Virus record (IMG/VR): IMGVR_UViG_3300031857_000291
Location: 1 to 50,656 of that record
DNA from: a virus
Lineage: Duplodnaviria; Caudoviricetes
Length of the DNA: 50,656 nt
Direction: 5' to 3' (one strand)
Both the position numbers and the translations under genes were made by a program. Below are positions 10,426-47,397 of this stretch, piece after piece. Position 1 is the stretch's first letter, and every line of letters begins with the position of its first letter. The notes beneath the pieces were generated by a model. The model did no database searches. It was given only the letters and a program-made list of their open reading frames with translations, and was not told the DNA's origin.

Positions 10426-10438
10426 GTGGGCACCTGAC

Positions 10439-10513: not shown

Positions 10514-10519
10514 CCCCCC

Positions 10520-10620
10520 GAGGACGCTGACCTGACGACCGACGACCGAGGACGCTGACCTGACGACCGACGACCGAGGAGGACGACCGACGACTTGACT
10601 GCGAGACCTGACGACCCGAG
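10520..10620. repeat. 28-bp direct repeat x2 (GAGGACGCTGACCTGACGACCGACGACC) with degenerate GACGACC units
   Basis: Copies at 10520-10547 and 10548-10575. Confidence 0.85.
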
Positions 10621-10936: not shown

Positions 10937-11158
10937 GGTAACAGTGGTATACGGTAACAGTGGGGGTGCCATAGCGCTTTATATGGGGGTGTATATGATA
11001 CAGACATTAAAAGAATACATTGCATGCCACACATAGACACAACCCGTCTAATTTACTGTTACCACTGTTACTGTGCCCAAAACCCCTTGCAAAACAAGCA
11101 CTTAGCAGGTAACATCACATTATTTAGTGATGTTACCACTGTTACTCGCGATGTTACC
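10937..11158. other. Putative replication origin (GGTAACA iterons flanking an AT-rich core)
   Basis: GGTAACAGTGG at 10937 and 10953; ACTGTTAC at 11055, 11064 and 11138; 11-bp inverted repeat GGTAACATCAC/GTGATGTTACC (11108/11127). Adjacent to the primase 3' end. Confidence 0.55.
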
Positions 11159-13292
11159 ACCCCAACTTTTTGAGGTGCGCGTTCACAGCACCGCTATCCC
11201 ACTCCTTGTCCCTACCCTGTACGACCCAGAACCGCTCGGGCTGCCCCGTGCTGGGCCTCTTAATCAACTTGCCGCCGTGCGCCTGTTGGAACCCCCCATT
11301 CCGCAGCGCGTTTGACAAGCTCTTAACCTTGCCGGGTGAAAGTTCCGCCTCACTCTCTCCGTAGTAGAGCACGGCAAGTTCCTTAGCGGTCCACACCGCT
11401 TTGCTCTGCCCGGGCAGGGGCAGCACGGCTTCGGGGTCAGCGTAGAGGTCCGCCACCCAGGCCTCCATGGGGGACATGGTGGCGGACTTAACTTCTTCTT
11501 TCCATGACGTAGCGGGTGCCCACGCGGCGGGGTCAAACCAACTAATGTCCACCCCTAGCAGATAATTGTAGAGCGCGGAGGGTCCCCACCCATTCTCCGC
11601 CCACTTAACATACCTCTGCCAGTAGGCTTGGTCCCCCCGCCTGTCAACTCCCCCCACGCCCCAACGCACCACGCAAGCACGTCTATCGTCTTGGTCGAGC
11701 TTCACACAATCCCAGTAGTTGCTCGTAATGACAAGATTCACGTGGTTAGCTATCTCATACTCGGGCTGACCCTTGCGGTTAACCTTCAGCATTTCCTGAG
11801 TGACGAGAGCCTTGACCCGTTGGCTCACCATGTCCTCCTCCCCACGGGCGCGTACCAACTCATCCGCGTGTACAAACTGCCGCTGCGCATAGTAGCTGGT
11901 GAACGTACTTTTAAGCGCATCCGTATCAACGATTACGGCATTCCCACCGTAGATGGCATGTAGCGGTTTGAAAAACAGATTTTTCCCCGTGCCGCTGGGG
12001 CCAAACATCAACACATAGCTGTTCAACTTCTTGCCAGGGTTCTGTAGTGGATAAGCGCACCACGCCACTATCCACTGCCGTAGCTCATCGTTGTCCACGT
12101 TATTGGCCAACAGCTCCAGCCAGGGGTCAACGTCCCCTGGCTCGGGGTCTAGGCCCATGCCGCGCCACAGGTTCAAGTTAGGTAGCCCGCCACGGTCACC
12201 CATGATTAACCTGCCCTTACCCGGGCTGTACTCAAGGCTTTGGGCCTCTACACGATCAACACTGCTCAGCCATACGCGGGGCACATTCACCTGCCGCGTG
12301 CGCTCGCCGTCCTCAACCTCCACGGTAAAGTGCGCGTAGTTCACATCAGTAAACACGGCGCGGGTCATCAGGTCGCCGGTGGCTTGGTCGGCAATACGGC
12401 CCAGCTCTCGCACCACGCACACCTCGCTACTGAGCTGTAGCATCATCTGGTGGTACTCGCTAATGTCAACGGGTGTTCCTTCACCCTGTAGAAACTCCAG
12501 CGCCTGCGCGTCCCCCACCCGGGCGCGGTAGTCGTCAAAGCCTTGGTCCTCACCACCCTCCGCTTTCGGCACCCGTAGGGCCACAGCTTGACGCCCGGTA
12601 ATCTCCATCAGCTTGGTGGCAAGCGCATTCTCAGCCGCTTGCACCTGCCAGTTATCCCACGCGTTGCTGTCGAACACGATTACGGGCTGGAGCTGTAGTG
12701 CCTTCCACGGCAGGTCCTTCAACTCCTCCACCAGGGCGATGTTATGCTTGCGGCTGCTCCAGCCCCACACGCCATTCAACCCCACGCTGGGTACGCCGAG
12801 CACCGCGCCGTTGATTGCTTTGATGCACGACTCGTGAATGTACACCCTATCCCCACTGGCGAGCTTCCGCCAGTCGTACACTGGGGGCAGATAGGCGTGG
12901 GGGCTTTCGTTAGGTGGGCAAAACATCTTGCCCGGAGTGCGTGCCTTGCTGGCGTCCACCACGTCAGCAAAGCTGGTGACCACCCGCAGCTCCACCTTGT
13001 CCATCAGCGGCACAAGGCGTGCGCTCCACCACTCAATAACCTGGTCCTTGTCCCCCAGCTTAAAGTGTGGGAAGACCACTGCCGCCCGGTTATCCGCCGC
13101 GTTGACCTGCGTGCTGCGCCGCGCAGCGGCAATCAGCTCAACGGCTTGCATCACGTGCAGGCCGCACTGGTCGGCAACCGCCCTGCTCACCCCACGCTGG
13201 GCTAAGTAGTCCCACACACGGCCGATGCCGGGGAACTGCTTCTCCTCCCTGTGGTTCTTAAACGACAGGCTTATCTCATTGAACGTTAACAC
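11154..13292 (-). CDS. DNA primase-helicase (DUF3854-like TOPRIM + SF3/DUF5906-like ATPase)
   Basis: TOPRIM motifs IHESCIKA, IVFDSN and GFDDY; Walker A GPSGTGKN; ADE; ITSN; DDRR. AAGGGG RBS. Confidence 0.85.
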   Translation of the reverse strand: MLTFNEISLSFKNHREEKQFPGIGRVWDYLAQRGVSRAVADQCGLHVMQAVELIAAARRSTQVNAADNRAAVVFPHFKLGDKDQVIEWWSARLVPLMDKVELRVVTSFADVVDASKARTPGKMFCPPNESPHAYLPPVYDWRKLASGDRVYIHESCIKAINGAVLGVPSVGLNGVWGWSSRKHNIALVEELKDLPWKALQLQPVIVFDSNAWDNWQVQAAENALATKLMEITGRQAVALRVPKAEGGEDQGFDDYRARVGDAQALEFLQGEGTPVDISEYHQMMLQLSSEVCVVRELGRIADQATGDLMTRAVFTDVNYAHFTVEVEDGERTRQVNVPRVWLSSVDRVEAQSLEYSPGKGRLIMGDRGGLPNLNLWRGMGLDPEPGDVDPWLELLANNVDNDELRQWIVAWCAYPLQNPGKKLNSYVLMFGPSGTGKNLFFKPLHAIYGGNAVIVDTDALKSTFTSYYAQRQFVHADELVRARGEEDMVSQRVKALVTQEMLKVNRKGQPEYEIANHVNLVITSNYWDCVKLDQDDRRACVVRWGVGGVDRRGDQAYWQRYVKWAENGWGPSALYNYLLGVDISWFDPAAWAPATSWKEEVKSATMSPMEAWVADLYADPEAVLPLPGQSKAVWTAKELAVLYYGESEAELSPGKVKSLSNALRNGGFQQAHGGKLIKRPSTGQPERFWVVQGRDKEWDSGAVNAHLKKLGW

Positions 13293-22819: not shown

Positions 22820-24152
22820 ACTTGGAATAGCTCAGGCGTGCGCGGGCTTTCTGCTGCGTCCTGGCATGGGCAAGACCACTATCAGTTACGCGATAGTAAA
22901 GATACTGCGCGACAAACGATTGATTAAACGCACGCTGGTGATTGCTCCCCTGCGTGTGATCTACAACGTGTGGCCTAAGCAGAAAAATGACTGGGCCGAG
23001 TTTGCTGACCTACGCGTGCAGATACTGCATGGCAAGGATCGCGTAAAGAACTTCCACAACATAGACGCAGACATCTACTGCATTAACCCAGAGGGTTTGG
23101 AGTGGCTTGACACGCCCGAGCATCTTGCTTGGCTGCGGCAGCACTTCGACGTACTGATTGTCGACGAGTCCACCAAGTTTAAGAACACTGGCACTCAGCG
23201 GTTTAAGAGAGTGCGCAAGTTCATTCAACACTTTAAGCGCCGATACATTCTTACAGGAAGCTTCACCCCCAACGGGCTGTTAGACCTATTTGGACAAATT
23301 TACGTGTTAGATGAGGGCGCTGCACTGGGTAGGTTCATAACGCACTACAAGACCAAATACTTCTACCCCACTGACCGCATGGGCTACACCCTGGCCCCGC
23401 ACGCCTGGGCTGCGGATGAAATTGCGGGCAAGATTGCTCCCCTCACCCTAGTATTGGACCGTGAGGGCAATCTTGATATGCCTGAGCTAATATTTAATGA
23501 CATCTTAATTGACCTACCTGAAAACGCACGCAAGCAATACGCGCAGATGGAGGAGCACATGCTCGCCACGCTAGATAAAGAACTGGTGGTGGCCGCTAAC
23601 GCTGCGGTGGCGACCAGCAAATGCCGCCAGATTGCTAATGGATGCCTATTCACTAACGCGGGCGACGGCACGTGGACTGACATACACGACGCCAAGATTG
23701 ACGCTCTAAAAGACCTTGTTGAGGAGCTGAGTGGGGAGAGCTTGCTGGTGGTGTACGAGTTTAAGCCAGACTTAGAAAAGCTGCGCAAAGCATTCCCCAA
23801 TGCGGTGCTGCTCACTGGCGGTAGCGCCACCCAGGACGCCACCAACATCAGCCTATTCGCGGGCGGCTTTGTGCAGATGGGGCTGGGGCAATTCACCAGC
23901 ATCAGCCTTGGCATTGACGGATTGCAAAACAAGTGCCGCAACGTGGTGATGTTTGGCCTGACGTGGAACTTACAAGACTATAGCCAAACCATTGACCGCA
24001 TCTGGAGGCAGGGACAGAGGGCCGACACAGTAATCGTACACCGCATAATTGCCAAGGACACGGTTGACCAACGCGTGCTGCGCGTGCTCAACGCCAAGGA
24101 CTCCACGCAGAGTAGCTTCCTAACTCTGCTCAAGGGCATGCAGCGCCCATAG
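22761..24152 (+). CDS. SNF2-family helicase
   Basis: PRSYQ, PGMGKT, IVDEST, LTGS, GIDGLQ and RIWRQGQ. Confidence 0.9.
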   Translation: MSTTELRSWQPRSYQQQAVKLGIAQACAGFLLRPGMGKTTISYAIVKILRDKRLIKRTLVIAPLRVIYNVWPKQKNDWAEFADLRVQILHGKDRVKNFHNIDADIYCINPEGLEWLDTPEHLAWLRQHFDVLIVDESTKFKNTGTQRFKRVRKFIQHFKRRYILTGSFTPNGLLDLFGQIYVLDEGAALGRFITHYKTKYFYPTDRMGYTLAPHAWAADEIAGKIAPLTLVLDREGNLDMPELIFNDILIDLPENARKQYAQMEEHMLATLDKELVVAANAAVATSKCRQIANGCLFTNAGDGTWTDIHDAKIDALKDLVEELSGESLLVVYEFKPDLEKLRKAFPNAVLLTGGSATQDATNISLFAGGFVQMGLGQFTSISLGIDGLQNKCRNVVMFGLTWNLQDYSQTIDRIWRQGQRADTVIVHRIIAKDTVDQRVLRVLNAKDSTQSSFLTLLKGMQRP

Positions 24153-24193
24153 CCCCGCGCTATGGGGACGTGAGTCCCATTGCAAAAAACAAT

Positions 24194-24221
24194 TTGCTTT
24201 GGAAACTCAAATGGGCATAAT
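24194..24221 (+). promoter_or_regulatory. Promoter TTGCTT-N16-CATAAT for the DNA-modification operon
   Basis: AT-rich upstream element; 16-nt spacer as in the other plus-strand promoters. Confidence 0.6.
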
Positions 24222-24247
24222 TACCTCTCAGCAGCACTAGTTACACC

Positions 24248-25195
24248 GTGAATATCTTTTACCTTGACAAAAATCCGCGCCGTGCCGCAGAAATGATGCA
24301 CGACAAGCATGTGGTGAAGATGGTGCTGGAGACTGCTCAGATTTTGAGCACTGTGTGTCATCGCCACGGCTGCTGGGTACCGGAGATGTATCGGCCTACA
24401 CACGCCAATCATCCAAGTGTGTTGTGGGCTGGTGAGAGCGTAGAGAGCTTCCAGTGGCTGTACGCGCATGGACTGTGGCTGGGCAAGGAGTTTGAGTACC
24501 GCTACGGACACGCTCACAAAAGCAGTGGAGTAATCGACATAGTACCCTACTTCACTCCACAGGAGTTTCCGCAAGCGCACTGGACCGAGCCTCCGCAGGC
24601 TATGCCAGACGAATTTAAGATTGCCGGGGACAGCGTAGCTGCCTACCGAGCATACTACCTGGGGCGAAAGGTAGAGCAAAGTGGCTGGACACGTCGCCCC
24701 GTGCCAGCGTTTGTGTTAGAAGGAAAACCTGAAATCATGGCTAAGAAGCAAGTGAAGACCGCGCCGACGGCTTCTACCCCCGCAGCGGCAGACGCACCGG
24801 CTGCATCCTCCAAGCGTGGAGCGCCCATTGGTGCCCGTGGGCCCAAGGGCGTGGCGCTAGACGCGCTGATTACCCTCAAGTGCGAGGGCAACCCCAAGCG
24901 TCCGGGCAGCAAGGCGCACGCAGTATTCGCACAGTACGCGGATGGGATGACAGTGCAAGCCTTCCTCGACGCGGTGGGCGACGCCGCCACCCCCAACTTG
25001 GTGTACGACGCTGCGCACGGCTTTATCTCCATCGAGGGGTACGACCCCAAACTGGTGGTGAAGAAGGAGCGTGCCCCCAAGGAGCCCAAGGCTCCTAAGG
25101 CCCCGCGTGCCAAGAAGGCCGCTGCCACCGCCGCAGCTCCCACCGCCGCTGAGGTAGAGGTGGACGCCCTGGCCGTGGAAGAAGTGATCGACTGA
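24248..25195 (+). CDS. Pyrimidine-dimer DNA glycosylase (DenV/endonuclease V-like) fused in frame to a Lys/Ala/Pro-rich DNA-binding-like domain
   Basis: MNIFYLD...DKHVVKMVLETAQILST...HANHPS...QAMPD..AYRAYY; internal AAGGA RBS and ATG at 24737. Confidence 0.75.
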   Translation: MNIFYLDKNPRRAAEMMHDKHVVKMVLETAQILSTVCHRHGCWVPEMYRPTHANHPSVLWAGESVESFQWLYAHGLWLGKEFEYRYGHAHKSSGVIDIVPYFTPQEFPQAHWTEPPQAMPDEFKIAGDSVAAYRAYYLGRKVEQSGWTRRPVPAFVLEGKPEIMAKKQVKTAPTASTPAAADAPAASSKRGAPIGARGPKGVALDALITLKCEGNPKRPGSKAHAVFAQYADGMTVQAFLDAVGDAATPNLVYDAAHGFISIEGYDPKLVVKKERAPKEPKAPKAPRAKKAAATAAAPTAAEVEVDALAVEEVID

Positions 25196-25205
25196 CGGCA
25201 AGTAA

Positions 25206-25982
25206 ATGGACATCGTAATTCCAACCTACGGTCGTCCACAGCAGAGCAGGCAGCATACCCTGAACGCCCTGGTGGCGGACGGGTTGCTGCCTGTACTGAT
25301 TGTGCAGCACCGCGAACATCAGCTCTACAACTGGTATCATGGCCCGGTGCATGTACTACCGCCAGAGATACAGACCGTAGCCCCCACGCGGGACTACCTC
25401 ATTCATAACGAGGTGTGGAAGAGTCGCTTTGTCTGCATGCTGGATGATGACCTACACTTCTTTGCCCGTCGTAATGATGACCCCACCAAGTTCCGTCCTC
25501 TGGTGCCGTTTGAGCTCGGCCGCATGCTGGCGCAGCTTGAGGGTATGCTGGACCGTTTTCCGCACGTGGGCATTGCCCCCAGAGAGGGTGGTAACCGCAA
25601 CACGGAGCCATTCATGCTCAACACACGCATCATGCGCGTGCTGGGGTATGACCGTGAGTTTTTGCGCACCCACAAGGTGACGTTTGCCCCCATGCCGGTG
25701 ATGGAGGACTTCCACGTTAGCCTGCAACTACTCAAGCTGGGGCGGGACACCCTGGTGCTGAACAATTGGTGCAACAACCAAGCCGAGGGGAGTGACGCTG
25801 CCGGGGGCTGCTCAACGTACCGTACCCCCACTTTACAGACTGACGCTGCCCGCCTGCTAGCCGCGCTGCACACCCCCTACGTCAAGGTTGTGGAGAAAGA
25901 AACCAAGACTGCGTGGGGCGGCGGCACTCGTACTGACGTGACCATCCAATGGAAAAAGGCCCGCAACCATGCTACAGACTGA
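25206..25982 (+). CDS. GT-A fold DNA-base glycosyltransferase (TET/JBP-associated GT-like)
   Basis: IVIPTYGR, MLDDD (DxD), EDFHVSLQLL and GGCSTYR; sits in the base-modification cluster. Confidence 0.75.
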   Translation: MDIVIPTYGRPQQSRQHTLNALVADGLLPVLIVQHREHQLYNWYHGPVHVLPPEIQTVAPTRDYLIHNEVWKSRFVCMLDDDLHFFARRNDDPTKFRPLVPFELGRMLAQLEGMLDRFPHVGIAPREGGNRNTEPFMLNTRIMRVLGYDREFLRTHKVTFAPMPVMEDFHVSLQLLKLGRDTLVLNNWCNNQAEGSDAAGGCSTYRTPTLQTDAARLLAALHTPYVKVVEKETKTAWGGGTRTDVTIQWKKARNHATD

Positions 25983-26796
25983 GCTTGCCTACTGGATAAA
26001 CGAGCGCTGGCGCATCCGCCAGCAGCGGGAGCAGGGCGTGCCCCCACCCTGGAGTGAGGACAAGGTGTTCCGCACCGTGCGCTTCTGCAACGTGCATAGG
26101 GAGGACGACAAGGTAACCCGCTGGGTGCGCAGGTACTGGAACCGTGGCACCGATCCCGCGTGGCGCTTTGTGGTGGCGCGGCTCATCAACTGGCCTGATA
26201 GCTTGGAGGACATTCTCAACTGCGAGACCCCAGCGCGGATGCGAGACCGGCTTAAGGACCGCCGCTACACCCACGCCAAGGTGTTTACCAGCGCCTACAC
26301 GGTCAGCACGTGTGGACGCAAAATGGACAAGTTGGACTACGTATTTGACCACGTAGCCGCCCGCGTTGCGCAGGCACAGTGGGCAGGCACCCACTCCACA
26401 CTGGAGGATGCGTACACATGGCTCTCTAACATTGATGGGCTAGGTAGCTTCCTCTCTGCGCAGGTAGTTGCGGACATGAAAAACACGCACGGCCACCCCC
26501 TGCACGACGCAGCGGACTGGTGGACATGGTCAGCCCCCGGACCGGGGAGCCTGCGGGGGCTGAGCTGGTTTTTCCACCACAACCACCTGAATACAAGCGC
26601 CAGCCGCTACCACACAGACCTTGCTACGTGCCGCGAGGCAACTGACCCACTCATCAACCCGGAGGTGCCCCGCATCAGCAACCAGGACTTTCAAAACTGC
26701 TTGTGTGAATTCAGCAAGTGGTGCAACGTCACATATCTCAACGGACACGTTAGGAACAAGTATGTCCCAGTTCTTCCAAAGAGTGCAAGAGTTTAA
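25969..26796 (+). CDS. aGPT-Pplase1-like (HhH-fold) thymidine-hypermodification protein
   Basis: ERWRI...PPWSED.VF...RFCNVHREDDKVT; GLGSFLSAQVVAD; PGPGSLRGL; QNCLCEFSK. Confidence 0.8.
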   Translation: MLQTELAYWINERWRIRQQREQGVPPPWSEDKVFRTVRFCNVHREDDKVTRWVRRYWNRGTDPAWRFVVARLINWPDSLEDILNCETPARMRDRLKDRRYTHAKVFTSAYTVSTCGRKMDKLDYVFDHVAARVAQAQWAGTHSTLEDAYTWLSNIDGLGSFLSAQVVADMKNTHGHPLHDAADWWTWSAPGPGSLRGLSWFFHHNHLNTSASRYHTDLATCREATDPLINPEVPRISNQDFQNCLCEFSKWCNVTYLNGHVRNKYVPVLPKSARV

Positions 26797-27154
26797 CCGC
26801 GTGTTCGGTATGCCGGAGCCTGCGGTGCCGGTAATGCCCAACAGTCTACGCCTACGCCAGTTTAGAGACATGCTGCTGGCCGAGGTTAATGAGTACGACA
26901 CCGTACGAGAGCTTGAAGACTTTGCTGACTGGGTGGGGGACATCATCGTCTACTGCGCCAGTGAGGCTATACGCCACGGCATCCCAATCGAGAAGGTGCT
27001 CAACATTATCATGGCCAGCAATATGTCCAAGCTGGGGGAGGACGGCAAGCCTATCATCAACAACGCCACCGGCAAGGTGGAAAAGGGACCTAACTACTGG
27101 CGTCCCGAGAGCATGATTCAACAACTGCTTGCCATGGAAGGCGCAGAGAGATGA
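26762..27154 (+). CDS. MazG-like (DR2231-type) NTP pyrophosphohydrolase
   Basis: VQEFNRVF, EVNE, D..GD, SNMSKLGEDGKP and GKVEKGPNY. Confidence 0.85.
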   Translation: MSQFFQRVQEFNRVFGMPEPAVPVMPNSLRLRQFRDMLLAEVNEYDTVRELEDFADWVGDIIVYCASEAIRHGIPIEKVLNIIMASNMSKLGEDGKPIINNATGKVEKGPNYWRPESMIQQLLAMEGAER

Positions 27155-28122
27155 TTCACACCATAACTGCCAGAAACGTGAACACCGCGTTTGCTGACGC
27201 TTGGCACTACCTGCGGGTGTCCGGCGTAAAGGAGAACAGCCGTAACGGCCCCGTGCTGGTGGCTCCCGGTCCGGTAGTGACTACCTATCTGCACCCCCAG
27301 CAGCGGGTATTGTTCAACCCCCAGCGGGATGCCAACGCCGTATTCCATTTGATGGAGGCCCTGTGGATGCTCGCTGGTGAGAGCGACGTACAGTGGCTCA
27401 AGCAGTTCAGCAGCAACATCGCCACCTATGCGGAGCCTGACGGACACATTCACGGCGCGTACGGGGCCCGCTGGCGTAACTGGTTTGTTGACGGCGAGTA
27501 CGACCAGCTACACGTGATTATTGAAATGCTGCGACGCGACCCCACCACCCGGCAAGCCGTACTCCAAATGTGGGATCCCGGCAGTGACCTCGAGGGCGAC
27601 TGGCGGGACCGCCCCTGCAACACCGCCGTGTACTTTGATGGACGCGGGGGCCGCTTGAACATGACGGTTACCTGCCGTAGCAATGACATTCTCTGGGGCT
27701 GCTACGGAGCCAACGCCGTACACTTCAGCGTGTTGCAGGAGGTGGTGGCACATGGCGCGGATCTGCCGCTGGGGGTGTACAGGCAGTTCAGCAACAACTG
27801 GCACGCCTACACGGGTAATCCGATGGTGCAGCAGTTTCTAGACATGCCCCCGTTTGAGGAGCATGACTATTACCGTGAAAGTACCGTAGCTCTGCCCCTG
27901 CTGCAACCCGGCGAGCGTTACCAAGACTTCTTGCTCGACTGCGAGAATTTGGTGAGTAGCTACAGCACAATGAAAACTGAGTTTATGCAGCGGGTTGCCC
28001 TACCCCTGCGTGACGCTTACCTCGCCCGCAGGGAGGGGGAAGCAATCAACTGGCGTGAGTTGCCTGAGTGTGACTGGACGCTGGCATTTTGTGACTGGTG
28101 CAATAGAAGAGGAACCAAATGA
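27151..28122 (+). CDS. Thymidylate synthase homologue, probable dUMP hydroxymethylase
   Basis: SRNG, EALWMLAG, GAYG.RW, RQAV, catalytic PCN, RSND.LWG.YGAN and H.Y. Confidence 0.8.
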   Translation: MIHTITARNVNTAFADAWHYLRVSGVKENSRNGPVLVAPGPVVTTYLHPQQRVLFNPQRDANAVFHLMEALWMLAGESDVQWLKQFSSNIATYAEPDGHIHGAYGARWRNWFVDGEYDQLHVIIEMLRRDPTTRQAVLQMWDPGSDLEGDWRDRPCNTAVYFDGRGGRLNMTVTCRSNDILWGCYGANAVHFSVLQEVVAHGADLPLGVYRQFSNNWHAYTGNPMVQQFLDMPPFEEHDYYRESTVALPLLQPGERYQDFLLDCENLVSSYSTMKTEFMQRVALPLRDAYLARREGEAINWRELPECDWTLAFCDWCNRRGTK

Positions 28123-28592
28123 GCAACGCTAATGAAGTGCAGGTAGGTGGCGACCATTACCGCCAAACAGGCGCAGCACTCCAGCACTGGGACTTGGCTG
28201 TCCACTTTAAGTGGGACCCATTCCAGTACCAAATCACCAAGTACGTGATGCGCTGGAAGTACAAGCACAGCACCCCTGCCGAGCGGTTGAAGGACTTGCA
28301 GAAAGCCGCGCACTTTCTGCAAAAGTACATTGAGGTCGTGGCAGAGTACGACCCCTCCGCCGCAGCGCCCGCAGCGCCGCCCGTGCCGCAGCCCGCCGTT
28401 ACCCCAAGGGCTGATGCTGCGCTTGCCCAGCTACTTAGCAATGCTGACTGGCAGGTGGAGGGCTACTTTGGTGACCTCACCCAGCACTACCGCTGCCGCC
28501 ATTGTGGGGAAATGGTACGCGCCCCAGACGCAGATGCTGCTACGCAGATGCACGGTAGCTGCGCCACTCCCCGCTACGTTGGGCAGGACTAA
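28119..28592 (+). CDS. DUF3310 protein (T7 gp1.7-like nucleotide kinase domain) with C-terminal Zn-ribbon
   Basis: QVGGDHY...KYVMRW..K...DLQKAAHF; CRHC. Confidence 0.75.
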   Translation: MSNANEVQVGGDHYRQTGAALQHWDLAVHFKWDPFQYQITKYVMRWKYKHSTPAERLKDLQKAAHFLQKYIEVVAEYDPSAAAPAAPPVPQPAVTPRADAALAQLLSNADWQVEGYFGDLTQHYRCRHCGEMVRAPDADAATQMHGSCATPRYVGQD

Positions 28593-28597
28593 CCACT

Positions 28598-28640
28598 TAG
28601 GGTAACCCCCTATTGGTTAGACTAGTCTGCCTGCCATACT
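28598..28640 (+). promoter_or_regulatory. Box-type promoter: TAGGGTAACCCCCTA-TTGGTT-N16-CATACT, upstream of the heptose genes
   Basis: Conserved box and spacing. Confidence 0.65.
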
Positions 28641-28675
28641 GCCACCACAACGCAACCCCGCCACCCTCCCTAAGC

Positions 28676-28960
28676 ATGAAAACCTACATCGTCTACCACA
28701 TGCGCAGACACATTCCCCCCGTGGGGAGTATCCACATTGCGGCTGACCGAATCGGCCATGTGCCTGGGCACTCCAGGCGGGGTGCGTTGCTCGTCGCCAA
28801 GCTGACATTCCCGTTACTTGGAAACAACCTTGCCGTAGGAGAAGATGAAAGTGATGACAAGTCTGATGGACGTGATACGCAAGCCTACGCCTTTGCGCAT
28901 CGCAACAGCGGCGCTAGAACAAGCCGAGAGGGACAGGCTAACCGCCGTCGAACAACGTGA
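28676..28960 (+). CDS. Hypothetical protein
   Basis: First ATG after the promoter; overlaps the next ORF and has a weak RBS. Confidence 0.35.
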   Translation: MKTYIVYHMRRHIPPVGSIHIAADRIGHVPGHSRRGALLVAKLTFPLLGNNLAVGEDESDDKSDGRDTQAYAFAHRNSGARTSREGQANRRRTT

Positions 28961-29075
28961 GTACTACGCAGCTATGGAGGAGATGCTGATTCGTCGCATC
29001 TCCCGCCTGCGCCGCGAAGTTGTGCAACTGACTCAGGAGGCTGAGAATGAGAAAAAAGATTCTAGTGGTGGGTGA
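28845..29075 (+). CDS. Hypothetical coiled-coil protein
   Basis: AGGAG RBS; overlaps the kinase start. Confidence 0.65.
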   Translation: MKVMTSLMDVIRKPTPLRIATAALEQAERDRLTAVEQREYYAAMEEMLIRRISRLRREVVQLTQEAENEKKDSSGG

Positions 29076-29943
29076 CTCCATGGAGGACGTGAGGCTGGAC
29101 TGCGAAGTGTCCCGCCTCTGCCCCGAGGCTCCGCTGCCCATCTACGACATTGACCAGCGCATCCACTACGCTGGGGGCGCTGCCAACGTGGCGTTGAACA
29201 TTGCCGCTATGGGCGGTGAGGTTACGCTGCTCACCGCAAAGGCAGAGCGCACCGAGCTTGACACGCTATACGCCAGTGGAATTGGCAGTGTGGTGACCAA
29301 AGTCACCACGGCCAACACGGTAAAGACCCGCGTGTTCACTGCTGGAGTGATGCGTGCCCGCATGGACGATGACTATATCCTCGATGAAGATGAGAGTGAG
29401 GATATGCTAGCCCTGTTTATTGATCAGATCAAGCACGCTGATGTTGTAGTGTTTAGCGACTACGGCAAGGGCGCTCTGCGTCACGTAGCCAATATGCTAG
29501 ACTACTGCACCGGCAAGCTGACGCTGGTGGACCCCAAGGGGGATAACTGGGCTAGGTATGAGAACGCCACGTACATCAAGGCCAACGCGGCCGAGTGTGC
29601 TGCGCTACAGCAATCTCCAGCAGAGCTTGCCAAGTGGCTGAACAACCGAGCCATTGTCCGCACTGCGGGGGCCGCCGGGTATGAAATCAACTACGTGGGC
29701 GATGAGTTCGGCAAGCTCTACCCTGCGCACAAGGTGGCTGCTGTGGACCCCACCGGGGCGGGGGACAGTTACCTCGCCGCTATGACGGTGGGCCTTGCCG
29801 CCGGACGCACCCTACAAGCCGCGTGCAGATTGGGCAGCATTGCCGGAGCCCTGGCAACCACCCACGTGGGGACAGCAGTAATCACTTCAACGGAGATTAA
29901 CGAGTGCTTGAAAGAACACTATCCGAGCATAGCGCCGCTGTAG
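29047..29943 (+). CDS. hldA: D-glycero-beta-D-manno-heptose-7-phosphate kinase (HldE/RfaE domain I, PfkB family)
   Basis: ILVVGD.M.D, SRLCPEAP.P, GGAANVALN, T.KTR, SDYGKG, LVDPKG and DPTGAGD. Confidence 0.85.
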   Translation: MRKKILVVGDSMEDVRLDCEVSRLCPEAPLPIYDIDQRIHYAGGAANVALNIAAMGGEVTLLTAKAERTELDTLYASGIGSVVTKVTTANTVKTRVFTAGVMRARMDDDYILDEDESEDMLALFIDQIKHADVVVFSDYGKGALRHVANMLDYCTGKLTLVDPKGDNWARYENATYIKANAAECAALQQSPAELAKWLNNRAIVRTAGAAGYEINYVGDEFGKLYPAHKVAAVDPTGAGDSYLAAMTVGLAAGRTLQAACRLGSIAGALATTHVGTAVITSTEINECLKEHYPSIAPL

Positions 29944-30473
29944 AAAGCCTGCGGGCGCAGTGGACGCTGCTTAAGAGCATGGCGCACATGCTTGCTGGCT
30001 GCATCAACCGTGGGGGCACCATCTACCTCTGCGGTAATGGGGGCAGCGCGGCGGACTGTCAGCACCTAGCGGCTGAGCTGGTGGGGCGCTTCCAGCGGCC
30101 ACGGCTGGGGTTCCGCGCCGTAGCGCTGACAACTGACACCTCAATACTCACTGCCGTGGGCAACGACTATGGTTTTGAGCATGTGTTTAGCCGTCAGGTA
30201 CGGGCGCTGGCTCGGCCGGGGGACGTGCTTATGTGTATCAGCACCAGTGGCAACAGCGCCAACGTGGTGGAAGCAGCCCGCGCCGCCACCGAGCTCGGCG
30301 TGCCCACACTGGCGATGACTGGTAGAAACAAGAGCATGCTCAGCCGCGTAGCCGCCGCCACCCTGCACATTGACAGCGAGGTTACCGCCCGCGTGCAGGA
30401 AGCGCACATTGTTGCTGCGCACATTCTATGCGAGTTGATTGATGGGGGACTTGATGAAGAGAGTTTGGACTAA
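29904..30473 (+). CDS. gmhA: Sedoheptulose-7-phosphate (phosphoheptose) isomerase
   Basis: CGNGGSAADCQHLAAELVGRF, NDYGFEHVFSRQV, ISTSGNSANV and RVQEAH. Confidence 0.93.
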   Translation: MLERTLSEHSAAVESLRAQWTLLKSMAHMLAGCINRGGTIYLCGNGGSAADCQHLAAELVGRFQRPRLGFRAVALTTDTSILTAVGNDYGFEHVFSRQVRALARPGDVLMCISTSGNSANVVEAARAATELGVPTLAMTGRNKSMLSRVAAATLHIDSEVTARVQEAHIVAAHILCELIDGGLDEESLD

Positions 30474-30882
30474 CGGCTGCTTTGACCTGCTGCACGCGGG
30501 GCACGTTACCTTCTTGCAGCACGCGGCCTCCTTGGGAACGCTGACAGTGTTTCTCAACAGTGATGCAAGCATCTCAGCATTGAAGGGGGTGCATCGCCCC
30601 ATCACTCCCCTGGTGTACCGCCGCAAGATGCTAGAGGCACTCCGCTGCGTCACTCACGTGCATGTGTTTGATGGCCCCACCCCCGTTGAACTTTGGGCTA
30701 CACTAGGCACCGTGCCCGACATGTACGTCAAGGACAGCGAATGCGACATCGTACACTCAGCGGAAGGTCAGTGGATGCTGGAGCGGGGGGTGGCAATCAC
30801 CGCGCTGCCACGTCTACCCGGCATTAGCACCACACTAATCGAGCAGCGTATCCGTGCCGGAGTACCGAGCAGCGTTTCTTGA
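30454..30882 (+). CDS. hldC: Heptose-1-phosphate nucleotidyl(adenylyl)transferase (HldE/RfaE domain II)
   Basis: TNGCFDLLHAGH (HxGH), NSDASI..LKG..RP and GISTT. Confidence 0.87.
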   Translation: MKRVWTNGCFDLLHAGHVTFLQHAASLGTLTVFLNSDASISALKGVHRPITPLVYRRKMLEALRCVTHVHVFDGPTPVELWATLGTVPDMYVKDSECDIVHSAEGQWMLERGVAITALPRLPGISTTLIEQRIRAGVPSSVS

Positions 30883-31369
30883 CAGGGACGGAACCCTGAT
30901 AAAGGACGTCCCCTACATCAACGACCCCACGCAAGTCGAGCTACTGCCTGGGGTCGTTAGAGCTTTGCGTAACTTGATTGAGTGCGGCTACCTGTTGATT
31001 GTGGTTACCAACCAGAGTGGGATAGGACGCTGGCGCATCACTAAGCCGCAGTACGTGGCCGTTCAGCGGCGGATGCTAGACTTACTGGCGCAGCATGGGG
31101 TGTACATCACCGCTACGTACTACTGCCCCCACACGCCGGACGCTGGCTGCGCCTGCCGCAAACCCGGCACTGAGCTATTTGAGCGTGCCGCCCGAGACTT
31201 TGACATTGACTTGTCCCAAAGCCTAATGTTTGGAGACAAGGAGAGCGATATGGTGCCCTGTGTGGGCACTTGCATCCGGGTGCCAAAGGACGCGTCCTGG
31301 GCTGCGTGGTACCGCCCCCGCTACCCTAGCCCCACCCCACCTGTAAAAACGCAGCCCGGGGGCGTCTGA
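30854..31369 (+). CDS. gmhB: D,D-heptose-1,7-bisphosphate phosphatase (HAD)
   Basis: FLDRDGT, VVTNQSGIGR, YCPH....CACRKP and GDKESD. Confidence 0.9.
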   Translation: MPEYRAAFLDRDGTLIKDVPYINDPTQVELLPGVVRALRNLIECGYLLIVVTNQSGIGRWRITKPQYVAVQRRMLDLLAQHGVYITATYYCPHTPDAGCACRKPGTELFERAARDFDIDLSQSLMFGDKESDMVPCVGTCIRVPKDASWAAWYRPRYPSPTPPVKTQPGGV

Positions 31370-31400
31370 TAGCTCTGGCGGGGCACTACCTGCCGCGTGG

Positions 31401-31763
31401 CTAGTAGCTCCACACTGTGGGGGCGCTGCGCAGGTCCAGATGTACGAAGCGTCCGGAGCCCTTTTGCTGCACCCCGATACCCGTAAAGCCCAGGTGCATC
31501 GCCAGGCGAAGCAGCTCGTGGGCATCGGCGCCCTGCACGCCGACATCGCAGGCCAAGCCGGTAGAGTGCATCCCCGGCTCGGCCTTGGCCTTCTCCACCG
31601 GGTGATCCGGACAACGATAGCCCGAGGTAATCGTCATCGGCTTGCGGTAGACATCCCGCAGCGCCTGCAATCGACCCATAAACTCGGGCCGCATTTCCTG
31701 CTTGCCGCAGTGCCGGCAGCGGAACTCAGCTTCCGTGAAGTTGGGGTAGTCGGACCAGTTCAC
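31401..31763 (-). CDS. Endolysin, peptidase M15A family
   Basis: NF..AEFRC, ITSGYRC, HSTGLACD and FVHLD. Confidence 0.88.
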   Translation of the reverse strand: MNWSDYPNFTEAEFRCRHCGKQEMRPEFMGRLQALRDVYRKPMTITSGYRCPDHPVEKAKAEPGMHSTGLACDVGVQGADAHELLRLAMHLGFTGIGVQQKGSGRFVHLDLRSAPTVWSY

Positions 31764-32161
31764 TTGGTCACCCCCTTGAACTTCTCCATCGTCCTGTACC
31801 CTCCGATGCCAAGCAGGCCGGTGACTACAACCCATAAAAGGTCGATGTTCACGTCCGGGGGTTCCGGCCAGCCTTTAATCCTAGCCACCCACGTCAGCAC
31901 CGGCTGAACAATCGTGGCATAAGCAAAGCCTAAGCCGCCAGTCCACATAAACAGCGGTCGCCCCCCAGCCACAAACAGGCTTGGGTGTTGAGCCTCGCGG
32001 GCGTTGATCTCAAGCTGCGCGATGGTCTGCTTCAGCTCGCCTTCGGCGGCCATGCGGACCAATTCCATCTCCGCTTCGCGTTTCTTCTCCGGATCAGGGA
32101 TGAAACGGTCCAGCAGCGTTTTTCCGACCTCAAGGATCGGCCCGAGGATGAGTGGGTTCAT
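31760..32161 (-). CDS. Holin (3TM GTA-holin-like)
   Basis: IN.REAQHPSLFVAGGRP and GLLGIGGYRTMEKFKG; adjacent to the endolysin. Confidence 0.85.
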   Translation of the reverse strand: MNPLILGPILEVGKTLLDRFIPDPEKKREAEMELVRMAAEGELKQTIAQLEINAREAQHPSLFVAGGRPLFMWTGGLGFAYATIVQPVLTWVARIKGWPEPPDVNIDLLWVVVTGLLGIGGYRTMEKFKGVTK

Positions 32162-42731: not shown

Positions 42732-42988
42732 TCTGCTCTCCTAGCTTCGATTTCGAGCGGGTTGTTCCGGTAGCCGTGCCGCAGCAGGCCCCACAGGTAT
42801 GTCACATACCACCGCACCACCCCCATCCGCTGGGCCTGCTGCCAGTGGCACTGCTCATGCCTGATGAGCGGCGCTTCGTTGATGCGCTCGGCCAGGATGA
42901 AGATGCCCAGCGGCGGCAGCGTGATGCCTCCGTACCCGAAGGTGCGGAGAAACCACCTAACGATGTGTGGCGCTGGGCGGGGGGTCAT
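42728..42988 (-). CDS. Small HExxH (DUF4157-like) protein
   Basis: RHEQCHWQQ...GY.NNPLEIEAR. Confidence 0.7.
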   Translation of the reverse strand: MTPRPAPHIVRWFLRTFGYGGITLPPLGIFILAERINEAPLIRHEQCHWQQAQRMGVVRWYVTYLWGLLRHGYRNNPLEIEARRAE

Positions 42989-45099
42989 AGTGAACCAAAG
43001 GCAGACAATATCCAGCTAGAACCGTTGTACTCAACATCGCACCATTGACCTGCTGCAAGCGCCTTCAACGGGCCGGTCCCGACGTTCAAATTAAACGCGC
43101 CAGTCGCAGCGGCGGTGCGAACGATGCGAAATTTTGCACCGTTGTACGCACCAGTTGTGTCTAGTCCAGCAGATCGATTTCCAGTCAATGCAGTGTTCCA
43201 GATGGAGGTTATGGGATCGCCAACATAAAGTATGGCGTCGGCGTTTCCATAATCCGCAGAAACACGCTCGGTCCTTGAAACAGTTGGGCCAGAAAACGGA
43301 GTTTCAGCTCGCATCTGGCGGTTATTTTCCCAATAGACAGTGTTTGCGGTAGGCGAACCGTCCTGCAAGTACGAGACAGATCCCGCAACACCGTTTCCAA
43401 CAAAAGACACATAGTTGTTCGCCAAAGACACATATGTGCCGCCTGTATTTCGGATACCGACTTTCGCTTCAACGGTCACATCATCAACGTGTACCCAGTT
43501 GTCAGACACGTTGAGCCCATAACAGGTGGTAGTCCAGATGCACGCGCCAGATGTGTTGGGGTCATCCGTGAAGGTCAATGTGTTACCAGTCACGCGAGAC
43601 TGCGGAACATCTACGCCACCAAAGCGGTCAACGTAGATTGAGCCATCGACCAAACGATTCCCGGTAATGACAATGCCGCCTCGTGTCAGCGCCGTGTCCT
43701 GCGCGCAGTAGATGCCATCGCCCACCGTGCGACTGGTTCCATTCAACAGCGCAATGATGTCGTTGTCGGCAATCAGGCCGTTCCTGGAGTTTGACGCTGG
43801 CGCAGAAGGGTGGTTTGAACAGCGAATCACATGCTGCGCGTAGCCCTTGCAGTGGTTGCCGATGATGCTGAAGCCGTCAACGCCTTGCATGAAAATGCAG
43901 GCGTAAGGGTCAGTGCCAGCGCCAGTATTCTCAAACCGGTTATTGGAAACGCTAAGGCGAGCGCCATGACTACCTTTAAGCGCCAAGCCGCCATCAATGG
44001 CGTATCCGATATTCCCATTTATGATGCCGTTTTCGCAAAACGAGAAGTAAAATGGAAGGTTGCTTTGCGGAGCTAGTGAATTTGTCGTATACCCGTAATT
44101 CCCTTCGACAACAAAATTTCCGACATACAACCCGTAGATTGCGCCACCATAATCAGAAAACTCGACAGAATTACCCAACCACTTGGCATCCGTTCCGTAT
44201 TTGAAAGCAACTTCCGAGTGATGCGATGTTGCGTCACCTGATCCTTTGTTTTTTACGCGCACATTGGAAATCGTTGCGCCTTTGAAAAATCGAATCTGGA
44301 CACTGTTGCCGTCCCAGTTGTCGAACAAGCAGCCATTGACGAAATGGTCTTTTGTGTAGCCCGCTCCTGTGTAGGTGTCTCCACCAGCAAAGACACCAGT
44401 AATACGGATGCCCTCACTCAAGCCATTGAGAAAATATCCTCCGCTGACCCGTACCCGATTGCCGGTGAAGTTGAAGATTGCGTTTGAGTCTTCGCCGTAT
44501 ATCACAACAATAGGCAGCGCGACCGTGTTCAGAATTCTGGATGTTCCAAAATCAATTTCAATGTCACTGGACGCAGTAGTGACGGCAGCGTTCACGAGGT
44601 AAGACCCCGTTGGGAAAACCACTCTTTTGCCGCTTGATGCCGCAAACGCCGCCTGAATCGCCGCCGTGTCATCGGCCACCCCATCGCCCACCGCGCCAAA
44701 ATCTAGCACGCTCACCACCTCTCGCATTTTGCTCTGCGCCGTGCGTGTGACTGCGCCGGTGCCAGCCTGAATGAAGCCTACGAGCGAAGATCCCCCTGGC
44801 TGAGAAAGTGCTGAGGACACAGCCGCTTCGTCGGTCACCACGTTGTCTACGGTCCAAATCTCAGAGTCGTTAGAGTCCGTAAGCCTGAACTTGTAGCTCG
44901 CAGCAGGGAGCCACACGTTGGCTTCCCCACGGCTGTCAAGAATTACGGGGTTGGTGTTGGCAGCGGTCTGTGCCTGATCAACATACGTGGTCTGGGGGGT
45001 GAGCGCACCTGCTGAGTACGTGTACAGCTTGCCGCCGACCAGGGGGTTGCCGTTAGCGTCAAAAAACTGGATTTTGGGGGTGGGAGTCAAGCTGGCCAT
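42985..45099 (-). CDS. Tailspike 2 (virion-anchor N-terminus + beta-helix depolymerase)
   Basis: QFFDANGNPLVGGKLYTY...NTNPVILDSRGEA; SVLDFGAVGDGVADDTAAI; beta-helix repeats. Confidence 0.87.
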   Translation of the reverse strand: MASLTPTPKIQFFDANGNPLVGGKLYTYSAGALTPQTTYVDQAQTAANTNPVILDSRGEANVWLPAASYKFRLTDSNDSEIWTVDNVVTDEAAVSSALSQPGGSSLVGFIQAGTGAVTRTAQSKMREVVSVLDFGAVGDGVADDTAAIQAAFAASSGKRVVFPTGSYLVNAAVTTASSDIEIDFGTSRILNTVALPIVVIYGEDSNAIFNFTGNRVRVSGGYFLNGLSEGIRITGVFAGGDTYTGAGYTKDHFVNGCLFDNWDGNSVQIRFFKGATISNVRVKNKGSGDATSHHSEVAFKYGTDAKWLGNSVEFSDYGGAIYGLYVGNFVVEGNYGYTTNSLAPQSNLPFYFSFCENGIINGNIGYAIDGGLALKGSHGARLSVSNNRFENTGAGTDPYACIFMQGVDGFSIIGNHCKGYAQHVIRCSNHPSAPASNSRNGLIADNDIIALLNGTSRTVGDGIYCAQDTALTRGGIVITGNRLVDGSIYVDRFGGVDVPQSRVTGNTLTFTDDPNTSGACIWTTTCYGLNVSDNWVHVDDVTVEAKVGIRNTGGTYVSLANNYVSFVGNGVAGSVSYLQDGSPTANTVYWENNRQMRAETPFSGPTVSRTERVSADYGNADAILYVGDPITSIWNTALTGNRSAGLDTTGAYNGAKFRIVRTAAATGAFNLNVGTGPLKALAAGQWCDVEYNGSSWILSAFGSL

Positions 45100-45878: not shown

Positions 45879-47397
45879 CTCCACCCTCAATGTCAACACT
45901 GCCAGAGGCGAGTACAAATTTCACAGGGTCCACTACGGTAATCTGCACAACAAGGTCCCGTGCGGAGCCAAGGCGGCGCAACATCACCCGCGTGGTGTAG
46001 GCTCCCAGCTTGCCAAGGGGCACCAAACGCTCGTTGCCAAATGTGCGCCCACCGTCTCTGGAGATGCGCAGCATCACGCGTGGATCCAATCCCGCAATGG
46101 TGGCCTGCTCAACCTCAATGTAGGAGCCTGCCTCTGTTACTAGGAAGTCACCCACCTCAGTTAGCAGGAGACCGTAGAAACCAAGCGGGTCCAGTCCACT
46201 AAGGCCAATACCGGTCTCAAAGTCAAGGAACAGCTCGGAGATTCCAAACTCGTTGCCCTGGTTCCGCACATGGCGGGTGACAACCTGCCGCTTGATTGGG
46301 GTGTCTGTGTCGGTGTATGTATTGATGTCTAGTAGATACAGGGCTCCGCTAGTGGTGTCGCTAACGTAGTTTCTACCATTGAAGGTAATGCCGTACTGTG
46401 CAAAGTGCCGCGCCTGCTCGGCTACGCCTGTCTGCGCCTCGTGCCATATGGCGGTCTTAGTATCGTAGGCGAATGACCTATTTTCTGTGGGGAAGGTTAT
46501 TTGCCAGATGGGGTGTCCGTACACCGTGTAGGTGAACGCGACTGCATCGTCCACCCGCGAGAACGAGGAAAACAGAGTGTTGAGGTCTGAGTCGCTAATT
46601 TCCTCAGGTGCGTAGCCGTTGAGCCGGATAGCGGAAATGCCACCGTCGGGCGCGTAGCCCAGAAAAATGTAGGTGTTGCCCACCTCTACAGAAGAGAGAT
46701 CAGCGGCTAGGCCCCAGCTCTGAGTGGCTCCGGTAATGCGCTGGTACGGTAGGGGGACAGAGCCAACGTCCTGCCAAAACTCAGTAGACTGCTGGCCCCA
46801 GAGCACCAGGGTGCCGTTCAAGTTGCCGACGCGCAGTAGCAGGTCACTATTGTTTTCCTTGGTGCCGAAGATTGGCAAGGACCCCAGATACGTCCACACA
46901 AGTCCGTCAAGTAAAGCACTGACGTAAAACTCACGCGTCCCGGGCTTGTTGACTATGAATCTTCCGTTGAGAAAGATTACAGACGTCGCACCCGTGGGGA
47001 AGAATGTAGTAGTAATGCTGGTGAGCGCACCACTGCTCACCGTGTAGACGTAGCCGGGACCACCTGTTACGAGGATGAGCTGTAGGCTATTGTCCGCAAA
47101 CTCGACGCGCCCACTGCCGGAGATGCCGGTCGCAAGCTGCGTGTACGCCCCAGCGGTGTCCACACTATACAGCACGCTCCCGGCCACCACGTACAGCGTG
47201 GTACCAATGACGTGCCACCCCCGCACGGGGGTGGTGGGTAGTGTGGTCCATAGCACGCTGCCGGGGGTGCCCAGCAGCACCACGGCGGAGCGGTCTTGGT
47301 CTTTGCGGATGTCGTACAGGCAGTTGAGTCTGCGCTGCCGAGTGACGATGTCCGATATGGCGCGGATGCCCGTACCAAAGAGCGGAATCGTACGCAT
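45871..47397 (-). CDS. Packaged-DNA stabilisation protein, P22 gp10-like (tail hub)
   Basis: GTPG, beta-propeller repeats, GH..WQITFP, YD..T..WHE, MLRISRDGG.TF and RRLG.ARD. Confidence 0.85.
   Translation of the reverse strand: MRTIPLFGTGIRAISDIVTRQRRLNCLYDIRKDQDRSAVVLLGTPGSVLWTTLPTTPVRGWHVIGTTLYVVAGSVLYSVDTAGAYTQLATGISGSGRVEFADNSLQLILVTGGPGYVYTVSSGALTSITTTFFPTGATSVIFLNGRFIVNKPGTREFYVSALLDGLVWTYLGSLPIFGTKENNSDLLLRVGNLNGTLVLWGQQSTEFWQDVGSVPLPYQRITGATQSWGLAADLSSVEVGNTYIFLGYAPDGGISAIRLNGYAPEEISDSDLNTLFSSFSRVDDAVAFTYTVYGHPIWQITFPTENRSFAYDTKTAIWHEAQTGVAEQARHFAQYGITFNGRNYVSDTTSGALYLLDINTYTDTDTPIKRQVVTRHVRNQGNEFGISELFLDFETGIGLSGLDPLGFYGLLLTEVGDFLVTEAGSYIEVEQATIAGLDPRVMLRISRDGGRTFGNERLVPLGKLGAYTTRVMLRRLGSARDLVVQITVVDPVKFVLASGSVDIEGGDD

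Follow-up and report, generated by a model that had tools for sequence, protein, structure and literature searches.

This analysis concerns a run of four heptose genes and a separately encoded glycosyltransferase in the window, that is, in the whole stretch of DNA analysed, the 50,656-nucleotide (nt) IMG/VR virus record IMGVR_UViG_3300031857_000291, taken in its entirety. Four open reading frames (ORFs) on the + strand at 29047-31369 encode, in order, a kinase, an isomerase, an adenylyltransferase, and a phosphatase, which brings all four pathway steps together, and the longest forms of these frames overlap by 40, 35, and 29 nt. The first gene (29047-29943) encodes a 298-amino-acid (aa) heptose-7-phosphate kinase of the HldA type (PfkB / rfaE_dom_I) and the second (29904-30473) a 189-aa sedoheptulose-7-phosphate isomerase GmhA with an SIS domain, both assigned by family, structure, and motifs. 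The third (30439-30882) encodes a 147-aa heptose-1-phosphate adenylyltransferase of the HldC type (CTP_transf_like / rfaE_dom_II), whose true start is probably the ATG at 30454, judging from relatives that align from residue 8. The fourth (30854-31369) encodes a 171-aa heptose-1,7-bisphosphate 7-phosphatase GmhB of the HAD-IIIA type. These identities were established at the level of family and fold.

Comparison with solved structures separated each protein from a sister family. The best match of the kinase was HldA (4e84, 6e-31), with 111 bits versus 50 for ribokinase, and that of the isomerase was 5i01 (2.5e-51), with 177 bits versus 117 for DiaA. The adenylyltransferase matched HldC best (5x9q, 3e-17; 66 bits versus 51 for glycerol-3-phosphate cytidylyltransferase), and the phosphatase matched GmhB (3l8e, 8e-24; 87.5 bits versus 73 for HisB-N). 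Motifs were read from alignments with orthologues of related phage contigs, 36-88% identical, which comprised seven sequences each for GmhA, HldC, and GmhB and 25 kinases. The GGAAN, DPKG, and GAGD positions were invariant in the 25 phage-clade kinases, as were CGNGGSAADCQH, STSG.S, and QE.H in the GmhA set, NGCFDLLH.GH and ST in the HldC-type set, and DRDGT, TNQSG, C..H..C.C, RKP, and GD...D in the GmhB set. The catalytic and ligand motifs were kept throughout (GAGD; CGNGGS...QH with E/H; H.GH with ISTT; DxDxT with the zinc Cys/His set and RKP), and their roles are those described for these enzyme families. A search for the SDR epimerase HldD (PF01370) found none in the window and none in the five related records (0/5), so that the expected product of the predicted pathway is ADP-D,D-heptose. 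A sequence-only reading of this DNA had described the four ORFs as an ADP-heptose operon with separate kinase and transferase genes, no HldD, and a D,D product. Families, best solved structures, and invariant motifs agree with that reading for a beta-type pathway with a PfkB kinase, the split gene arrangement is that of HldA/HldC in Burkholderiales, the nearest bacterial kinase relatives, and the negative epimerase search fits the expected product.

The second element lies on the - strand, where a 361-aa protein (48356-49441) resembles heptosyltransferases of glycosyltransferase family 9 (GT9) in its fold and through its orthologues. It stands in a virion-morphogenesis block in the order class I S-adenosylmethionine (SAM)-dependent methyltransferase (50036-50557, - strand, 173 aa), GT9, SU10-type head-to-tail adaptor, and nozzle-like protein; the adaptor (47397-48350, - strand, 317 aa), which identifies the block as one for morphogenesis, is immediately downstream of GT9. 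The methyltransferase is fused to GT9 in most relatives. In the window the two genes share a frame and are split by about 590 nt (49442-50035) with several stops. In three other records (G006, G007, G016) a frame of 740 aa stays open but for one in-frame TGA, which lies between the part for the methyltransferase and that for GT9. The model of the window GT9 protein (predicted local distance difference test, pLDDT, 87.3) gave 3tov (GT9, 2.8e-14) and WaaF 1psw (E. coli heptosyltransferase II, 6.8e-13) as its best matches at template modelling (TM) scores of 0.61-0.66, followed by WaaC and TibC at 0.48-0.59, and the modelled fold is of the GT-B type and closest to GT9 structures. When a profile of the methyltransferase-GT9 alignment was searched against PDB, only methyltransferases and 3tov at E 0.26 were returned.

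Homologues of this protein proved abundant in metagenomes. Among 4,326 candidates scored, 2,814 matched at E <= 0.001, and the 120 homologues listed were 59-89% identical, most of them fusion proteins some 520 aa long; 21 of these 120, at 59-65% identity, have PF01075 in their records, and many carry the JGI name 'ADP-heptose:LPS heptosyltransferase/predicted SAM-dependent methyltransferase' (LPS, lipopolysaccharide). The five operon-carrying relatives were searched with Glyco_transf_9, which yielded one sub-threshold match (20.8 bits versus 22) in a 518-aa ORF of G009. This ORF is a fusion, its N-terminal part 61% identical to the window methyltransferase and the rest 65% identical to the 361-aa ORF. 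Four C-terminal residues (C301, C312, H313, C333) were invariant in 38 sequences; this Cys/His set may be akin to the iron finger of TibC. GenBank phages gave no GT9 homologue in 50,697 records, so that the background for co-occurrence is very low, and the PF01075 search of the window and related records found no GT9-family LPS transferase beyond 48356-49441. Across 80 GT9 loci the order was constant; 76 of them had the methyltransferase, 79 the adaptor, and 73 the next, 508-aa protein. The portal lay about 5.5 kb upstream of GT9 where the flank extended that far, and GT9 was more conserved than the adjoining adaptor in many of the loci. Because this locus order is conserved in 80 loci, GT9 can be regarded as a core gene of the morphogenesis block in a large uncultured phage group.

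The four heptose genes were also found, in the same order, in six distinct related contigs, with intact frames and 36-88% protein identity. The succession there was helicase, a DNA-modification cluster, kinase, GmhA, transferase, GmhB, and then converging late genes. Conservation, contiguity, and co-occurrence were observed directly. A scan of viral contigs with the single kinase protein found nothing, and the alignment-based scan retrieved 80 viral loci. The kinase belongs to a clade of about 34 diverse metagenomic sequences on phage-sized contigs, ranging from 100% down to about 36% identity, and its next relatives are stand-alone Burkholderiales HldA proteins at 35-37%. A tree of 68 rows grouped the bacterial HldA sequences tightly together, and the branch leading to them has a length of 1.45 and a support of 100. 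This placement supports the view that the phage lineage has carried the heptose genes for a long time and that they are no fragment of host DNA; the phylogeny against bacterial homologues had been proposed by the sequence-only reading, and its claim of domestication agrees with the separate viral clade. Losses or absences also occur: L006 and L007, which are closer relatives, pass directly from the DNA cluster to the late genes, and L177:11712-12858 (+) has only a GmhB-like phosphatase and a 224-aa ORF at the operon position, with the methyltransferase-GT9 fusion still there. In five other phage records the heptose genes, three or four in each, lie near a terminase and an SU10-type portal. When 91 ORFs surrounding the heptose genes of six other phage contigs were tallied by Pfam family, SU10_portal had 4 members, radical SAM 2, and Nmad5 and DpdA 1 each, and the 25 families displayed out of 57 included none of glycosyltransferases. 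On an unrelated heptose-carrying contig an Nmad5 gene (L015:5582-6151, -) was seen some 3 kb away from the heptose genes, on the strand opposite to theirs. A metagenome scan with the kinase alignment was uninformative, since none of the 80 matches listed carries TS-like, TAGT, HMUDK_hel, or other phage genes of the window.

The distribution of the heptose genes was compared with that of GT9 and of the DNA cluster. GT9 was found in four of the five operon-carrying relatives at 68-92% identity, the miss being a 17.8-kb, 30%-complete fragment. Of five relatives without the operon, GT9 was absent from three that are 98-100% complete and from one that is 63% complete, and the three complete ones keep the TAGT, HMUDK_hel, and thymidylate-synthase-like (TS-like) genes of the DNA cluster; the sole operon-less relative with GT9 is G011, the contig of the lone GmhB-like gene. 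Among 47 viral records reached via the kinase, a count made with loci L060-L089 (30 loci) and 3 further records set aside, 11 had a strong match over the GT9 part (E <= 1e-100). At least five of these are unrelated to the window (G002, G003, G004, G017, and G019), in that their loci have nothing similar to its polA or helicase. Thirteen records had a kinase at least 34% identical; eight carried GT9, and the five without it were all fragments, 4-30% complete. In the five other records whose heptose genes lie near a terminase and portal, the TS-like gene was found in none and GT9 in three. In the reverse direction, a GmhA match was present in 2 of 38 further GT9-bearing records and in one of the seven complete ones. 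The heptose genes are nested within GT9-bearing phages, a pattern to be expected of a system in which GT9 uses the product and the pool of the host is mostly sufficient. Comparative genomics ties them to the GT9 gene and not to the DNA cluster. The sequence-only reading had named LPS-core and protein heptosylation as general uses of the product, and had missed the GT9 and methyltransferase genes at 48356-50557 that co-vary with the operon.

The best explanation, and in our judgement a probable one, is that the phage supplies its own ADP-D,D-heptose as donor for its own GT9-fold heptosyltransferase (48356-49441). Early or middle transcription of the operon would lead to synthesis of ADP-D,D-heptose from sedoheptulose-7-phosphate, and the GT9 enzyme of the late module would then move the heptose onto an acceptor, while the partner methyltransferase (50036-50557) would probably methylate the sugar or the acceptor. 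Most GT9 phages would draw on host ADP-heptose, and the lineage of the window would have added a supply of its own. Since GT9 is located in the late structural module, the evidence points to a virion or envelope component as the acceptor rather than DNA, and a DNA acceptor is less likely because GT9 also occurs in heptose phages without hydroxymethyl-pyrimidine genes.

Several observations weigh against this explanation. About 17 kb separate the operon from GT9; the operon is on the opposite strand, in the early/middle module and directly behind the DNA-glycosyltransferase cluster, and heptose genes were found within 6 kb of GT9 in none of the 80 GT9 loci. Many of the co-occurrence rows are fragments, and the close relatives of the window are not mutually independent. 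The 361-aa protein had no Pfam or PHROG match, including PF01075 (cut-off 22 bits), and its GT9 membership is derived from the fold, the orthologues, and the sub-threshold match; ADP-heptose use by this protein is a prediction drawn from co-occurrence with the heptose genes. All four operon proteins fell below the NCBIfam equivalog cut-offs, the kinase with 176.5 bits (PfkB / rfaE_dom_I) versus 345, GmhA (SIS / GmhA) with 199.3 versus 276 and 182 versus 209.45, the HldC-type protein with 106.7 versus 181.5, and GmhB with 137 versus 178, and they are therefore divergent members of their families. The enzyme activities, the coupling of donor and consumer, and the acceptor are what we infer from these genes. 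Finally, there is a precedent for the use of heptose on phage DNA, as phage clusters with heptose and di-heptose on 5-hydroxymethylcytosine (5hmC) are described by Pyle et al.

Such a use has to be considered since a complete-looking cluster for thymidine hypermodification (24248-28592, + strand) lies directly upstream of the operon in the same orientation; the sequence-only reading, correct on the gene content of the operon, had missed it. The cluster begins with a 315-aa Pyr_excise-like / phrog_624 protein (24248-25195, +), in which a T4-endonuclease-V-like (Pyr_excise) N-terminal domain is joined to a lysine/alanine-rich C-terminal part; L006, L007, L008, and L019 have the C-terminal part only. 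The N-terminal domain was considered as a marker tracking the operon and was dropped, as it is a common stand-alone phage domain (about 175 aa in metagenomes). It is followed by a TAGT-family GT-A DNA glycosyltransferase (25206-25982, +; PF20691, 71 bits versus a cut-off of 27.5; phrog_842). Its model (pLDDT 96.6) has a GT-A fold nearest to RmlT, TarP, and TarS, its DDD motif (D80-D82) is invariant, R10 and D168-F169 are conserved, and the R...DDD...EDF pattern is kept, so that in PF20691 membership, motifs, and TarP-like fold it agrees with phage GT-A DNA glycosyltransferases. The motifs R...DDD...EDY/F were defined for these phage enzymes by Pyle et al. The next gene encodes an HMUDK_hel / aGPT-Pplase-like helical protein (25969-26796, +) with PF18723 over its whole length. 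No Walker A motif of a P-loop kinase domain was seen on reading its sequence, only the helical domain PF18723 was matched, its phage homologues are annotated as aGPT-Pplase, and it lacks the kinase domain by which a 5-HMUDK is recognised. PDB sequence searches with HMUDK_hel and with TAGT gave no useful match. A MazG-like pyrophosphohydrolase (26621-27154, +), the TS-like enzyme (27151-28122, +; PF00303, 82 bits), and a nucleotide-kinase-like protein (28119-28592, +) complete the cluster. The TS-like enzyme is probably a dUMP hydroxymethylase; its best PDB match was the CMP hydroxymethylase MilA, it has an Asn ('GAN') at the position of MilA's Asp, and its phage homologues are annotated as deoxyuridylate hydroxymethyltransferase. 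At this base-specificity position, Asn in place of Asp would point to dUMP.

In the 80 loci retrieved by a scan with the TS-like protein, HMUDK_hel adjoined the TS-like gene in 78 and TAGT was present in 26. A transferase gene directly precedes HMUDK_hel in the six operon-carrying contigs, TAGT in five of them and a GT-B enzyme in L019, and in PhiJL001 the TAGT and HMUDK_hel genes are both present about 0.5 kb apart; the transferase and HMUDK_hel proteins may work together. The TAGT slot of L019 (6742-7662, +) holds a 306-aa GT-B ORF resembling T4 beta-glucosyltransferase, a DNA transferase swapped at a fixed position.

DNA heptosylation was the first leading idea because of this adjacent cluster. 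In such a scheme ADP-heptose would be a donor for DNA modification and TAGT (25206-25982) would place heptose on 5-hydroxymethyluracil, giving a heptosyl analogue of base J. The operon is indeed the 3' continuation of one co-oriented run, from the Pyr_excise-like gene through TAGT, HMUDK_hel, and the MazG-like, TS-like, and nucleotide-kinase-like genes to the heptose genes, an order kept in six distinct operon-carrying contigs (with GT-B in the TAGT slot of L019), and TAGT has the DDD motif and TarP-like fold reported for DNA GT-A enzymes by Pyle et al. Phage UDP-arabinose pathways beside DNA transferases, as in the arabinosyl-hydroxycytosine pathway (PMC13326640), offer a further precedent. 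However, of the 26 loci with TAGT found among the 80, the majority have TAGT, HMUDK_hel, and the TS-like gene and no heptose gene at all, including three complete GT9-less genomes. All four heptose genes occur in only 6 of the 80 TS-like loci, which are the six known contigs of one lineage, with GmhB-like alone in one more (L177). Since the TS-like gene is also missing from all five other heptose-carrying phages, three of which have GT9, the association of the DNA cluster with heptose genes is confined to one lineage. Moreover, the heptose transferase of the published screen is a GT-B and not a GT-A enzyme, according to Pyle et al. Consequently, the TS-like loci, the operon-less complete relatives, and the co-occurrence with GT9 demoted DNA heptosylation to a reading that we consider unlikely, and under the favoured explanation the thymidine-hypermodification / TAGT cluster is best read as a system separate from the heptose operon.

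It seems more doubtful that the phage tops up or replaces ADP-heptose for host enzymes of the LPS core or of host protein heptosylation, under the high demand or in the pathway-lacking host that the sequence-only reading had inferred. In its favour, the bacterial kinases closest to that of the window are HldA proteins of the ordinary Burkholderiales kind, the operon sits at the end of a module, a typical spot for accessory metabolic genes, and large cyanophages have annotated heptose genes that show no link to DNA. Such a role would leave the tight co-occurrence with a phage GT9 unexplained. LPS cores usually use the L,D form of heptose, whereas the window and the related records have no HldD. 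An artefact, in which a host fragment had been mis-assembled onto a phage contig or the genes were decaying, is very improbable. The record is linear and about 91% complete, and the sub-cut-off scores of all four proteins could be read in that direction, but both junctions are crossed, with 0 differences, by contigs from three runs that belong to different studies, the synteny is repeated in six other viral contigs, where the frames are intact and the catalytic residues kept, and the guanine plus cytosine content is flat over the operon and equals that of the flanks. The bridging contigs are of 14,630 nt (runs X1 and X4, spanning 23000-31602) and 8,014 nt (run X10, spanning 23000-30956), and one of these runs may be the source sample of the window. 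Because contigs from separate runs cross its junctions, the operon is not chimeric, which removes the chimeric assembly with host DNA that the sequence-only reading had named as a way in which it could be wrong. Over a 7.1-kb stretch spanning the operon, 99-100% of sampled words were present in 12 runs, labelled mostly as freshwater, lake-water, or fungus metagenomes. The freshwater metatranscriptome run X20 contained short identical contigs at 24747-25239, in the Pyr_excise-like gene, and 29215-29365, in the kinase gene; one 151-nt contig within the kinase gene and two more upstream are too little to claim expression.

We therefore return to the supply of ADP-D,D-heptose for the phage's own GT9 enzyme. 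A more specific form of this explanation, which we regard as possible and put forward tentatively, is that this SU10-like podophage group heptosylates, and probably methylates, a virion protein of its own by means of the virus-only methyltransferase-GT9 enzyme, and that some lineages, that of the window among them, acquired the complete pathway to ADP-D,D-heptose in order to feed this enzyme. Heptosylation of beta-helical proteins is the work of TibC-type enzymes in this family, and the beta-helical tailspikes, the adaptor or nozzle, and the capsid would be candidate virion acceptors.

The system can be compared with those already known. The split bacterial pathway to ADP-L-glycero-beta-D-manno-heptose (Burkholderia, Neisseria) uses the same four enzyme families with kinase and adenylyltransferase separate, but includes HldD, which the window lacks, and the kinase of the window belongs to a separate viral clade, about 35-37% identical to bacterial HldA, in a lytic-type podophage. 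T4-like cyanophages (S-CAM1, P-SSM2, S-T4, and others) likewise carry a kinase, an isomerase, and a nucleotidyltransferase annotated as heptose enzymes, so that phage heptose genes were known as annotations. Those cyanophages, however, have genomes of about 180-250 kb and kinases only 25-29% identical to that of the window, the features annotated under the matches include none named GmhB, and the large records searched gave no GT9 match, only weak matches over the methyltransferase part. The phage GT9 protein shares its modelled fold with the GT9-type GT-B enzymes WaaC, WaaF, and TibC, whereas its sequence similarity to them is at or below the Pfam threshold, it is usually fused to a methyltransferase, and it has the invariant C-terminal Cys/His set and a place in the phage structural block. 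As in the sugar-hypermodification clusters of phage DNA, nucleotide-sugar supply and transferase are both encoded by the phage, and both such clusters and the window have a DDD-motif GT-A DNA transferase beside a TS-like gene. The published 5hmC heptose case (Pyle et al. 2023 preprint / Cell Rep 2024) relies on a GT-B enzyme together with a cytidylyltransferase and a HAD/APH fusion, whereas the window has the classical four-enzyme route, co-varying with a GT9 outside the DNA cluster.

The carrier is an SU10-like podophage of about 50 kb by gene content, for which the earlier label 'podovirus-like' appears reasonable, and its group is a clade of uncultured freshwater SU10-like podophages that maintains the heptose operon. 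The + strand at about 14.8-31.4 kb encodes a family A DNA polymerase, a PD-(D/E)XK nuclease, and a SNF2-type helicase, and a primase-like gene lies at 11154-13292 on the - strand. Lysis and virion genes on the - strand include an M15 endolysin, a holin with three transmembrane segments, two pectate-lyase-type tailspikes (4675-6495 and 42985-45099), an SU10-type portal, and a terminase. The tailspike pair shares repeats, 76-87% identical, at the 5' ends and upstream (4600-4675/42916-42991; 6232-6357/44656-44781), which suggests a common N-terminal anchor module. No tRNA was found in the window, and a DNA search of 28000-32000 against GenBank phages gave no match. Between the DNA cluster and the operon lies a small conserved + strand ORF (28845-29075, 76 aa) that overlaps the kinase start, 80-84% identical in L003-L005 and also present in L007, which has no operon. 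A small ORF at 28677 to about 28850 (+), beginning MKTYIVYHM, has similar counterparts in L013, L014, and L177, located as in the window, and is probably a further small conserved gene there.

The same gap contains a 14-nt copy (28599-28612, -) of the box TAGGGG[GT]TTACCCT, which has 8 matches with at most 2 mismatches in the window versus 0.32 expected. The sites comprise three exact copies within 9569-9624 and others at 17531 and 28599, together with degenerate copies. The box can form a 5-bp hairpin, and two relatives have it in the orthologous intergenic gap, where it follows closely on the preceding gene and is turned the opposite way. The sequence-only reading had taken it, at 28598, for a phage-specific promoter; the repeated motif stands, the promoter role is putative, and a sigma-70 scan found nothing at the box. 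Dense tandem repeats were seen at 9284-9400, 9555-9624, 9832-9936, and 10429-10573, in or beside the mostly non-coding stretch 9226-10292. They comprise a 39-nt unit in three copies, 18-nt repeats, a run of CCCTG pentamers, and a 28-nt duplication, and a 28-nt unit of two boxes, present four times at intervals of 14 nt, holds the TAGGGGTTTACCCT box. This repeat stretch may be an origin or a regulatory region.

In papers taken apart from their supplements, among which the tables of Pyle et al. may include similar contigs, the literature search returned nothing that treats a methyltransferase-GT9 enzyme of phages or heptose genes adjoining TS-like genes. What would probably be new here is the coupling of a phage nucleotide-sugar supply to a phage GT9 transferase. 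Phage heptose genes have so far been filed as generic LPS auxiliary metabolic genes, and here the full pathway is tied by phylogenetic profile to one specific phage transferase, itself uncharacterised and abundant in metagenomes. It also illustrates that adjacency to a DNA-modification cluster can mislead about function. ADP-D,D-heptose is an innate-immune agonist in animals, and its phage-driven synthesis would be worth noting because of that activity. The concrete pair of donor and enzyme points to glycosylation of the particle or the envelope in a major uncultured group of freshwater phages, and if the protein-heptosylation reading is true, this would be the first phage-encoded system of that kind with its own donor supply.

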